From the NCBI GenBank assembly GCA_038064455.1, contig JBBTTB010000005.1, positions 21,983 through 85,982 on the forward strand: a DNA stretch of 64,000 bases. The letters are read 5' to 3'. The notes beneath the pieces are model-generated. The model was not told where the DNA came from, ran no database searches, and saw only the letters and a program-made list of their open reading frames with translations. Positions 21,880 through 28,774 of the stretch are shown here, in pieces. The translations under genes and the position numbers were made by a program. How positions within the stretch are numbered: position 1 is the stretch's first letter; each line of letters opens with the position of its first letter. Source of the DNA: Patescibacteria group bacterium (lineage in GTDB: Bacteria; Patescibacteriota; Minisyncoccia; 2-02-FULL-40-12; GWA2-44-9).

Positions 21880-22037
21880 AGTCGAGATAGGCTTTCGTGC
21901 CAGAAGGGCGGATATCCTCTCGCGCACCCCACGCCTATGTCTAAGTTTGAAAATACATAAATGTCGGAGTATAGTTGACGAGTAGTAATCACTGTCGAGA
22001 CTTCTAAATTTATAATAGCTGCAATTAAAACAGACAT

Positions 22038-26803: not shown

Positions 26804-26832
26804 TTGACCCTTCCGATTTATTATTGTATCCT
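26804..26832 (+). promoter_or_regulatory. sigma70-like promoter upstream of the Cys-rich micro-ORF
   Basis: TTGACC at 26804..26809, a 17-nt spacer and TATCCT/TATATA. Confidence 0.35.
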
Positions 26833-26882
26833 ATATATCGATCTTTCCCCCGTACCTTTCTGGGGAGGAGGTGAGGAAGAAA

Positions 26883-26984
26883 ATGGCGCGCGACTGTTCG
26901 CACAGTGGCAAGTGCGGTACCAAGAACCACACCGGCAACAGCAGCCACGGCTGGTGCAAGTACTGCAAGAAGTGCAACAGCTGA
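26883..26984 (+). CDS. 33-aa cysteine/histidine-rich peptide MARDCSHSGKCGTKNHTGNSSHGWCKYCKKCNS
   Basis: ATG at 26883 with a GGAGGAGGTGAGG SD 5-12 nt upstream and a TGA stop at 26982. A perfect terminator follows 15 nt later. The ORF is absent from the supplied ORF track, which lists only ORFs of 60 aa or longer. Confidence 0.45.
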   Translation: MARDCSHSGKCGTKNHTGNSSHGWCKYCKKCNS

Positions 26985-26998
26985 CGGCAAGGTCGTGA

Positions 26999-27034
26999 CA
27001 TGGGGGAGGCTCGCATAGCTCCCCCATGTTTTTT
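26999..27034 (+). terminator. rho-independent terminator
   Basis: CATGGGGGAG-gctcgcata-GCTCCCCCATG followed by TTTTTT. Confidence 0.7.
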
Positions 27035-27047
27035 ACAAGGAGGCACA

Positions 27048-27277
27048 AAGTGGCTCAAGTGGGCAAGCCGTTTCACGAGCTGACGGAAAGCGAGGCGAAG
27101 AAGATCGTCAAAGCGATCGTGAGATCGTCGCACTCGGAGGAGGAAATCCGCCGGCGCCTGACGGAGGCGGGCTTCAGCGGAGCGAGTGCGCTCATCGCTG
27201 CAGACAGCTGCTGCAATGGGTTCCAGGTGATGGTTCGCTCCCCACGTGGGAAGACCATCAGCATCTCGGCTCACTAA
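27048..27277 (+). CDS. small hypothetical protein (GTG start)
   Basis: AAGGAGG SD 7 nt upstream of the GTG. About 76 aa (VAQVGKPFHELTESEAKKIVKAIV...). Confidence 0.4.
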
Positions 27278-27287
27278 GGAGGACGTC

Positions 27288-27437
27288 ATGAGCGTTCGAG
27301 AACAAGCAGAAGAAGTCGTCGAGACGCTCGACGACGCGACGTTCTTCACCGCGCTTCAGGCGGAGTGCGAAGAAACGCTCTTCCTCCTGAGGACCCGAGG
27401 ACCGAGGGGTGGAACACGCTCATGCGTGCACGCATGA
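27288..27437 (+). CDS. small acidic hypothetical protein
   Basis: TAAGGAGG SD upstream of the ATG. 49 aa (MSVREQAEEVVETLDDATFF...). Confidence 0.3.
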   Translation: MSVREQAEEVVETLDDATFFTALQAECEETLFLLRTRGPRGGTRSCVHA

Positions 27438-27547
27438 GCACTCTGCATCAGCTCACTGGAGCAGCCCTCGGCAAGAACAAGAAGTAGCACAACCTCGGTC
27501 TCAACGACGCACGGCGGCTAGCGATAGCCGCCTTTCTCTTTGCAAAA

Positions 27548-27578
27548 GCCTAGCATTCCCATGTGTGAGCGCGTAGAA
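27548..27578 (+). repeat. 31-bp promoter-like box, copy A (GCCTAGCATTCCCATGTGTGAGCGCGTAGAA)
   Basis: Near-identical to copy B at 28384..28414, 29 of 31 matching. It sits just after a terminator-like hairpin. Confidence 0.6.
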
Positions 27579-27598
27579 CGAGAGTACGCATCCGATAC

Positions 27599-27628
27599 TT
27601 GACACTGCTACTATCTTCTCTGTATAAT
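27599..27628 (+). promoter_or_regulatory. consensus sigma70 promoter (TTGACA-18-TATAAT)
   Basis: TTGACA at 27599..27604 and TATAAT at 27623..27628, about 115 bp upstream of the ATG at 27743. Confidence 0.5.
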
Positions 27629-27742
27629 ATTGTTGTTAGTGCGCACCTTACAATAAACCGAAACCGATATACCGCCGCACACTGCGGCCCCGGCCTTTCA
27701 GGCGCGGGAAGAATACCGACTTTCAGCCGGAAGGAGAACGTC

Positions 27743-28312
27743 ATGTCCAAATACGGACACCTGCCCCACAACTACTTCGAATACATCATGAATCGTCTCG
27801 GTGGCGAAGAGGGAGCCGAAGCGTTCAAGCGCGGGGATGTGATCCTGGCCCCGAACTCCCAGAAGCTTCTGCGATTGGTGGTGAGGGCGACCCCGCTCCC
27901 CGTCATCAAGGAACTCGTGGTCAAGGACATGTTCACCAGCAAGAACTCCTCGCGCGAATTCCGGAACGCGTTTTTCAACGTTGTGGAGCGAAACATCCCA
28001 GCGTCGCAGGTTCACATCATGACGCTGTTGGAGGAGGCGGATGGCCTGTCCATCGCAACCATGCTGGGAGTTCGGAGATCTGTGGTGTGGCTGTCCCACT
28101 TCGTCGACATTCTCCAGAACGACCTTCTCTTCTTCCTCACCAAGCGCGTCATGGCGTTCATCATGGACGCGAGCGGCGTGGACGTGCAGATCGTGGAGGC
28201 TTGCCGGCTGCACGGTGAGTGGTACTACGACGTCGTCTCGCTGGGCAACATGAACGTGCGGCAGAAAGGCTCCTATTTCGTGGTTTCGTCACCCGAGAGC
28301 CCGAGCGCCTAG
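27743..28312 (+). CDS. hypothetical protein (189 aa, GC-rich)
   Basis: GGAAGGAGA SD upstream of the ATG at 27743. The listed ORF start at 27599 lies inside the promoter. Confidence 0.5.
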   Translation: MSKYGHLPHNYFEYIMNRLGGEEGAEAFKRGDVILAPNSQKLLRLVVRATPLPVIKELVVKDMFTSKNSSREFRNAFFNVVERNIPASQVHIMTLLEEADGLSIATMLGVRRSVVWLSHFVDILQNDLLFFLTKRVMAFIMDASGVDVQIVEACRLHGEWYYDVVSLGNMNVRQKGSYFVVSSPESPSA

Positions 28313-28383
28313 CCGCACCGAGCTCGTCAGCCCCCAGTCCCGCTGTGGTTTCCTTCACGGACCATGGCGGGGCTTTTTGTTTT

Positions 28384-28414
28384 GCCTAGCATTCTCATGT
28401 GCGAGCGCGTAGAA
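28384..28414 (+). repeat. 31-bp promoter-like box, copy B (GCCTAGCATTCTCATGTGCGAGCGCGTAGAA)
   Basis: Second copy. It ends 12 nt before the ATG at 28427, which would give a near-leaderless mRNA if the TAGAAT acts as a -10. Confidence 0.6.
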
Positions 28415-28426
28415 TAGAGCCTATCT

Positions 28427-28774
28427 ATGTCACACGAAAAACCAATAATACCACAGCCGCCGGAGCGCGTAGAGCAAGAACCAACGCTCGCAGAGTGTCT
28501 ACTCAATGCCTTGCGCACCGAAGGACTTGTCGGAGAGCATACCCAGCAGTACATTCAAGAGTGGTGGACTGCGCGTGAAGCCCTTTCTGATGAGGGTCGT
28601 TGGGAGGCAGATCTGATTCGTGCGGGGATATTTCTTACCGCTGGGTTCATTTCTGAAGCACTTGAGGAATTTGAATCTATAGCACAGCAAGCCTACGAAG
28701 CACAGAAAGACGACATCGTTGACCGTTGCGATCAATGCATCGAGGCGATCCGCAAAGCTATCCCGAACGAATAG
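28427..28774 (+). CDS. hypothetical acidic protein (115 aa)
   Basis: Clean ORF directly after box B. A terminator follows at 28783..28810 (AGCCCCTCACGGGGCTTTTTGTT). Confidence 0.5.
   Translation: MSHEKPIIPQPPERVEQEPTLAECLLNALRTEGLVGEHTQQYIQEWWTAREALSDEGRWEADLIRAGIFLTAGFISEALEEFESIAQQAYEAQKDDIVDRCDQCIEAIRKAIPNE

Follow-up and report, generated by a model that had tools for sequence, protein, structure and literature searches.

A conserved Cys5His2 micro-gene in a Patescibacteria group bacterium and its putative metal-binding product

Contig JBBTTB010000005.1 of a Patescibacteria group bacterium (GCA_038064455.1) carries, within the 64,000-nucleotide stretch analysed here (positions 21,983 to 85,982; hereafter the window), a forward-strand micro-gene that encodes a protein of 33 residues (Table 1). 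Cysteines occupy residues 5, 11, 25, 28, and 31, histidines residues 7, 16, and 22, and the C-terminus reads CKYCKKC. Direct reading thus confirms the original prediction, which had been made from the DNA alone and had described an open reading frame (ORF) with five Cys, three His, and a CxxCxxC end. The peptide is strongly basic (net charge +6) and hydrophilic, with Leu, Ile, Val, and Phe all missing from residues 1-33, and contains no signal peptide, no hydrophobic stretch, and no transmembrane helix of the type expected for type I or small membrane toxins. GC content at the three codon positions is 0.30/0.58/0.91. The source annotation (Hainich groundwater assembly, ENA ERZ1292619, 'H41_01um') calls no gene between 26715 and 27698, exact look-up of the 33-residue product found no record, and no second copy of the micro-gene occurs within the window. 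The absence of the ORF from the track on which the prediction was based had been put down to its short length, and the source annotation likewise missed what is a real conserved micro-gene. Comparison with homologues places the translation start at ATG 26883 and not at GTG 26871, since leaderless homologues in four loci (L002, L003, L005, L022) begin with 'MA', 1-3 residues before the first Cys.

Table 1. Features of the micro-gene and of other parts of the window discussed in the text
Feature	Position	Strand	Description
Coding sequence of the 33-residue microprotein	26883..26984, stop included	+	MARDCSHSGKCGTKNHTGNSSHGWCKYCKKCNS; ATG 26883-26885, TGA 26982-26984
Single Cys5His2 module	residues 5-32 of the product		
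Tryptic peptide of the product			NHTGNSSHGWCK
Promoter-like pair (weak, putative)	26804..26832	+	TTGACC-17 nt-TATCCT, 9/12 matches
C-run	26845-26852		UUUCCCCC
Start of Shine-Dalgarno region, able to pair with C-run	26862-26869		GGGGAGGA
Shine-Dalgarno region	26864..26876	+	GGAGGAGGTGAGG; 6-11 nt ahead of ATG
Intrinsic terminator	26997..27034	+	10-12-bp G+C-rich stem, 10-nt loop, T6
Stem arms of terminator	26999-27008; 27019-27028	+	CATGGGGGAG / CTCCCCCATG
T6 of terminator	27029-27034	+	
Antisense frame, 172 aa	26831-27349	-	
Antisense frame, 75 aa	26821-27048	-	
Antisense frame, 69 aa	26781-26990	-	
GC-/GC3-rich island	26880..28414		Short, separately terminated + strand units: micro-ORF; ORFs 27050-27277, 27288-27437, 27740-28312
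Uncalled ORF, 75 aa	27050-27277	+	Own Shine-Dalgarno AAGGAGG at 27037 (27037-27043)
Uncalled ORF, 49 aa	27288-27437	+	Own Shine-Dalgarno AAGGAGG at 27277
ORF, 190 aa from ATG	27740-28312	+	
Sigma-70 promoter of 190-aa unit	27599-27628	+	TTGACA-18-TATAAT, 12/12
Terminators in island	27513-27532; 28336-28374		
Antisense ORF called by source annotation	27698-28213	-	
31-nt direct repeat	27548-27578; 28384-28414		GCCTAGCATTC(C/T)CATGTG(T/C)GAGCGCGTAGAA; partial third copy 28463-28479
ATPase gene, 809 aa	15492-17921		DUF8128/DUF87/TrwB_AAD_bind
Adjacent pair of genes split in L004	40690-41208; 41213-41461		172-aa ORF; DUF3977

That the micro-gene is a genuine conserved protein-coding gene is practically certain. 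When the 33-mer was searched with phmmer in 1.84 billion representative proteins, four matched (E 1.1e-11 to 1.6e-5). The best was a 34-mer with 84% identity (E 1.1e-11); the others were a 46-mer and two tandem double-module proteins, 56 and 60 residues long. After three iterations with profiles the family comprised about 25 members, and scans at the DNA level uncovered further uncalled copies in Ca. Ryanbacteria (MHNO01000006; L005) and other groundwater contigs. A check of synonymous sites, as proposed with the prediction, found substitutions mostly at third codon positions: in the four closest homologues, nucleotide differences from the window at positions one, two, and three amount to 1/3/8 in L004, 4/3/15 in L002, 4/6/17 in L005, and 4/5/13 in L006, with dN/dS of about 0.07-0.15 where dS was estimable and not saturated. 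One Ser codon in L004 is switched from AGC to TCC. Judging from these comparisons, the frame is under purifying selection.

Across the micro-ORF, stop codons are missing from each of the three antisense frames, and from one of them in most homologues as well, and the 172-aa frame shares GC-rich third positions with the micro-ORF, which could suggest that the ORF arose by chance or that one of the antisense ORFs is the real gene. Comparison with the homologues refutes this reading, leaving it next to no probability. Of all six frames, the sense frame is always the one with the lowest number of changed residues (2-7/31 vs 4-20/30-31 elsewhere, 4-19/30-31 in the antisense frames), and five close homologues differ from the window in 6-23% of residues in the sense frame vs 13-63% in the antisense frames. 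The 172-aa frame is broken by stops in L005, L006, L003, and every Bacteroidota homologue and overruns both the terminator and the differently phased forward-strand ORFs, the 69-aa frame acquires stops in several homologues, and the 75-aa frame is mostly open yet changes 9-19 of 30 residues. Moreover, it is the sense frame, with its invariant Cys and His, that protein searches recover. Because the sense frame is conserved while antisense residues change or give way to stops, the open antisense frames are a composition effect, in agreement with the earlier description of the antisense ORF as a shadow of the micro-gene. Loss of the reading frame in homologous regions, with the antisense frame preserved, had been named as the outcome that would speak against the gene; the opposite was found.

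The micro-gene is effectively a monocistronic, self-contained cassette, because it possesses its own strong ribosome-binding site and its own intrinsic terminator. The Shine-Dalgarno (SD) region lies where it had been predicted, and SD-type motifs also precede the ATG in homologues (GGAGGTGAG in L002 and L005, GAAGGAGG in L003, GGAGGTGAC in L022). The terminator stem is perfect over 10 bp, as claimed, can be extended to 12 pairs, and begins 14 nt past the stop codon; the region folds with -24.1 kcal/mol (z = -3.5), a value equalled by 0 of 200 shuffles. In L002, L004, L005, and L006, too, the ORF lies between an SD of the GGAGG type and a terminator hairpin whose 5' arm contains a G-run, and nucleotide alignment among homologous loci extends over the coding part and not over the flanks. 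Of the expression signals once described as textbook, the SD and the terminator therefore stand, but the -35/-10 pair does not: it has only 9 of 12 matches, and sites of this type number 7 in 6 kb vs 4.9 +/- 2.2 in shuffles, no better than chance. A TTGAC[ACG] hexamer is found upstream in L004 and L005 as well, at differing distances, and the promoter scan did not flag the one in L005. In the minimum free energy fold of the transcript, a C-run upstream can pair with the start of the SD region and could partly mask it; this pairing is not conserved in homologues. Rfam searches at gathering and E <= 1 thresholds gave no RNA element except a distant tRNA. The suggested linkage to tRNA genes was not borne out, as the nearest tRNA is 5 kb away and none occurs in 11 homologous loci.

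The family is defined by a module of 27-30 residues with the core C-x-H-x3-6-C-G-x3-H-x2-7-G-[WFY]-C-x2-C-x2-C-N. In 22 aligned modules, C5, H7, C11, G12, H16, G23, C25, C28, C31, and N32 (window numbering) are invariant, position 24 holds only W, F, or Y, and position 13 one of T, S, and A, while nearly all else varies, both loop lengths included; the third His of the window peptide, His22, is not among the conserved residues. The modules occur in three architectures. The first is a leaderless single module of 33-34 aa, found in the window, L002 (63% GC), L004, L005 (Ryanbacteria), and, with a 14-residue extension, L006. The second is an acidic head-to-tail double module with neither leader nor spacer (proteins P0003, P0004, P0005, and P0008; loci L003, 61% GC, and L022, 69% GC). 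The third, Bacteroidota-type, is encoded at loci of 32-41% GC and comprises 73-85 aa, with a single module at the C-terminus behind a conserved stretch of about 45-55 N-terminal residues (LEQDTLELPT..DFVETEK..EL.NSIDLPM). Two Bacteroidota-type paralogues lie side by side in L013, and the Bacteroidota-type locus L021 has neighbours with the T9SS domain Por_Secre_tail. Net charge reverses between forms, single modules being Lys-rich and tandem forms Asp/Glu-rich, so that the conserved property is the ligand set and neither charge nor hydrophobicity.

None of the reference collections searched accounts for this module. The 33-aa peptide matched 0 families in a Pfam-A hmmscan at E <= 1, and neither the peptide nor its homologues matched Pfam, NCBIfam, PHROGs, or PADLOC; among the homologues, Pfam gave only the sub-threshold hits Zn_ribbon_Elf1 (E 0.12) and RecQ_Zn_bind (E 0.49). 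Sequence searches of the PDB with the profile and with single sequences found nothing significant (best match a C2H2 finger, E = 9), and searches of the literature on the CFI-box, on cysteine-rich small proteins of the candidate phyla radiation (CPR), and on Cys-rich peptides of Bacteroidota that are made by ribosomes and modified after translation (RiPPs) found no description of the micro-gene family. By its sequence signature, the module represents a previously unclassified family among small Cys/His-rich, presumably metal-binding microproteins.

We propose that the micro-gene product is an autonomous metal-binding microprotein, metallothionein- or zinc-knuckle-like in its action and a member of neither family, and give this reading a probability of about 50%. 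The seven invariant ligands, thiolates and imidazoles that account for roughly every fourth residue, would wrap one or two metal ions, most likely Zn(II) or Cu(I) and possibly a small Fe-S cluster, and the knuckles would take their shape from the invariant Gly residues and the aromatic residue that precedes Cys25. The module might serve in metal buffering and hand-over or as a metal-stabilised interaction module, and it would work without a partner encoded next door. We infer such a coordination shell because ligand density is high, reversal of net charge is tolerated, the module is duplicated, and a partner gene is missing. Metallothioneins and zinc fingers also expand by module duplication, as do the eukaryotic two-domain metallothioneins.

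Among the three functions that had been proposed for the peptide, metal binding is the one that the five Cys and two His invariants favour. A toxin-like peptide is disfavoured, as the product is hydrophilic, lacks a signal peptide, and has an odd number of Cys, and its charge is not conserved. A precursor for modification fared unevenly, with neither leader nor maturase in the window and a leader-like region in the Bacteroidota homologues.

The metal-binding proposal derives from residue conservation, and several observations weigh against it. The suggested check for a zinc-knuckle-like fold with AlphaFold2 gave mean pLDDT values of 54 (P0002, first run) and 59.5, with no confident fold that could be assigned, and Foldseek found 0 matches in the PDB. 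Zinc-finger, metallothionein, and ferredoxin HMMs remained unmatched even at E <= 1, no similar PDB sequence emerged, and seven ligands are not easily distributed over one or two tetrahedral sites. Neither genes for metal homeostasis nor metal-sensing regulators are linked at the examined loci, and the leader-like region of about 50 residues in Bacteroidota resembles that of a modified-peptide precursor and would be left unexplained by a simple metal buffer. A cupredoxin-like protein of 175 aa (C-terminal ...YCSVGSHRQMGM...) is encoded in L005 (5554-6081, reverse strand), about 2 kb from the peptide gene; it was identified by eye only, and no other metal-protein neighbour was seen at any of the loci.

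The closest functional analogy is offered by the bacterial metallothioneins (SmtA/BmtA, Pseudomonas metallothioneins, and MymT of Mycobacterium tuberculosis), which are likewise very small, cytoplasmic, Cys/His-rich, and devoid of enzymatic domains and are encoded by stand-alone genes. With five Cys and two His invariant in 27-30 residues, the module has the small size and high content of conserved ligands of a metallothionein, and its ligand density (7 of about 27 residues) is comparable to the clusters of SmtA and PflQ2 MT, which are of the Cys9His1-2 type (PMC7387436). However, its ligands are spaced differently, in a rigidly conserved pattern, and are fewer per module, the micro-gene is accompanied by no divergent SmtB-type metal-sensing repressor, and neither the peptide nor its homologues match the Metallothio_Pro profile with its Zn4Cys9His2-type Cys/His pattern (Pfam-A at E <= 1, NCBIfam); metal binding by the module is, moreover, putative.

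Zinc-knuckle and zinc-ribbon microproteins (e.g. ribosomal protein L36, which has a CCCH site, and the small archaeal CPxCG zinc-finger proteins) are free-standing mini-domains of 30-60 residues with strong expression signals. The module shares these traits with them, along with a CxxC knuckle, the 'CG' pair, and Gly-aromatic-Cys turns, and combines one CxxC(xxC) knuckle with CxH and C-x4-H half-sites. In contrast to their four ligands it has seven invariant ones, its single classical CxxC pair is extended to CxxCxxC, and neither HMM nor PDB similarity connects it with these proteins; AlphaFold2 recovered neither ribbon nor knuckle (pLDDT only 54-59.5). The invariant CxxCxxC triad with remote invariant Cys residues also recalls the [4Fe-4S]/[3Fe-4S] motif of ferredoxins, but the module reads CxxCxxC-N-P/S only, without CxxxCP (no Cys-Pro at +4) and without a Fer4 match, is nearly devoid of hydrophobic residues that could shield a cluster, and has two invariant His that a ferredoxin would leave unexplained.

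The micro-gene opens an island of short, separately terminated units whose GC content is 0.54-0.61 vs about 0.45-0.50 on either side. GC at third codon positions (GC3) of the four island ORFs is 0.91, 0.79, 0.65, and 0.83, compared with 0.45-0.57 for long window genes; for the micro-gene itself it is 0.89-0.91 vs about 0.5 for the genome. GC3 of the peptide gene is also high in L004 and L006 (host GC 49% and 37%) and host-like in the Bacteroidota and in L005 (Ryanbacteria). Translational selection was considered as a general cause of the C-ending codons and rejected, as the Bacteroidota and Ryanbacteria copies use host-like codons. In L004 (1-2896), an insert of 1.85 kb that begins with the peptide gene and also holds an ASCH-domain gene and two ORFs splits homologues (43% and 56% identity) of two genes that are adjacent in the window, which points to an insertion/deletion hot spot with the peptide gene at different sites in related genomes. 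Across the examined homologous loci there is no shared neighbour gene; the neighbours are often of defence or mobile-element types, as in L009 (SMODS, a PNP-type effector, an XRE regulator, and a TrwB/VirD4-like ATPase), L013 (defence-type E1-E2 and NYN), L017 (a CapP-like M78 peptidase and type I restriction-modification), L031 (HsdR), and L022 (HATPase_c_3). Sporadic horizontal spread of the family and a fairly recent arrival here seem to follow from the GC3-rich island, the position of the L004 insert, the foreign codon usage, and the non-conserved neighbours. Thus, the micro-gene was probably acquired with the GC3-rich island, and we infer that the family is cargo of variable or defence-type regions.

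This setting gives some room to the view that the product, while still being a metal-binding module, belongs to mobile or defence islands as a metal-stabilised microprotein for interaction or regulation and not for the handling of metal as such. It would be a miniature zinc finger with nucleic acid, a host protein, or a defence protein as its target and would act as a regulator, an anti-defence factor, or an addiction factor. The defence and mobile-type genes at L009, L013, L017, L031, and L022 agree with this view, as do the Fic and HTH_17 genes about 3.5 kb downstream of the micro-gene in the window, the strongly basic window peptide (+6), and the variable gene position in related genomes. 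However, the basic charge is not conserved and tandem forms are acidic, no fixed partner gene exists, and neither the peptide nor its window neighbours match PADLOC or PHROGs. Nor was a family member found in viral contigs (IMG/VR), GenBank phages, or PLSDB plasmids; the HGWCxxCxxCN pattern had seven matches in viral contigs, all out of frame or stop-ridden. On balance, we consider such an island-bound role unlikely.

A lower probability still is given to the possibility that the module is a RiPP core or precursor, modified (e.g. by Cys-derived cross-links or heterocycles) through enzymes encoded elsewhere, with a leader on the Bacteroidota versions and with the leaderless groundwater versions either modified without one or used unmodified. 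Like the Cys-rich RiPP precursors (SCIFF/ranthipeptides, methanobactin-type, and bufferin-type MNIO substrates), the Bacteroidota members carry a short Cys-rich C-terminal core directly preceded by a conserved leader-like N-terminus and form tandem paralogues in L013; like many precursor genes, those of the family are short and have terminators of their own, and both Ser/Thr and Cys are present. Bufferin-type families with 6 or 12 Cys resemble the one- and two-module versions described here. In contrast, the window peptide is leaderless, with its first invariant Cys already at residue 5, leader and spacer are both missing from the tandem forms, and no known leader family or NCBIfam precursor model was matched. 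Within 5-10 kb of about 12 independent loci there is no radical-SAM (SPASM included), YcaO, LanB/C/M, MNIO/DUF692, peptidase-ABC exporter, or other maturase gene, nor any conserved neighbour, and the invariant His and Gly suit a fold better than a modification site. The ThiF protein of L013 matches defence-type E1-E2 models, is encoded beside a gene with a weak, sub-threshold Prok-E2_E match, and does not resemble a cyclodehydratase partner. The same protein had raised the idea of MccA/MccB-type adenylation of a C-terminal Asn, which was rejected since these models place ThiF with the defence type and Asn is not the last residue of the L013 peptides.

The last alternative, a regulatory leader peptide or attenuator in which translation of the Cys-rich ORF controls the terminator and hence the two ORFs behind it (27050-27437), is suggested by the succession of a short ORF, a terminator, and then an SD with a same-strand ORF 20 nt later; it is largely refuted because the downstream genes are not conserved but differ in every locus, and the amino-acid sequence under purifying selection across phyla, the dispersed and not clustered Cys codons, and the lack of a conspicuous antiterminator pairing or Rfam element leave it only a very slight chance.

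Further observations concern the surroundings of the micro-gene and of its relatives. The two uncalled ORFs downstream share one terminator and have no homologue by exact look-up or in the HMM libraries. The 190-aa ORF (GC3 0.83), with a full sigma-70 promoter and a 16-bp terminator of its own, has no family match in Pfam, NCBIfam, PHROGs, or PADLOC. At this position the source annotation calls an antisense ORF instead, whose GC content is highest at codon position 1, and probably chose the wrong strand. The two copies of the 31-nt direct repeat are 94% identical, lie each just downstream of an intrinsic terminator, and bracket the 190-aa unit; the repeat may represent an operator, a site of recombination, or the junction of an island. 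Farther away in the window, the 809-aa ATPase is 36.6% identical over 399 aa to the TrwB/VirD4-like protein of L009 (5988-7277), whose gene is situated upstream of that for a Bacteroidota family member, at a distance of 0.7 kb; the similarity hints at a conjugative or mobile-element connection. In two unrelated genomes the peptide gene directly follows, on the same strand, a gene for a CFI-box-CTERM (NF041770) protein (L002 2895-3425, 63% GC; L017 4154-4882, 38% GC, also L018-L020), which is possibly a recurrent partner; the window contains no such gene, and literature on the CFI-box-CTERM domain was not found.

The module could even be a novelty in its own right. It might form the core of a natural product or metallophore that belongs to a new ribosomal class, with leader-bearing Bacteroidota precursors served by unlinked enzymes and minimal, self-sufficient leaderless forms that include one in a Ca. 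Ryanbacteria genome of the CPR, or else, if unmodified, a new minimal Cys5His2 metal-cluster fold without a relative in the PDB; taken together, these prospects are doubtful. If true, a new minimal metal-binding fold or a hitherto unrecognised modified-peptide core would be a new entry in either catalogue, and an island cargo with a regulatory or anti-defence role would rank among the smallest such factors. As modules of 27-30 residues can be synthesised chemically, metal stoichiometry and structure could be determined quickly. What sets the family apart is a sharply defined Cys5His2 signature that occurs in three architectures across distant phyla and is unmatched in Pfam, NCBIfam, PHROGs, and the PDB. 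A real conserved gene was invisible both to the source annotation and behind a 60-aa ORF cut-off, and the micro-gene is a concrete example of the microprotein blind spot in metagenome-assembled genomes, those of ultra-small groundwater bacteria included.

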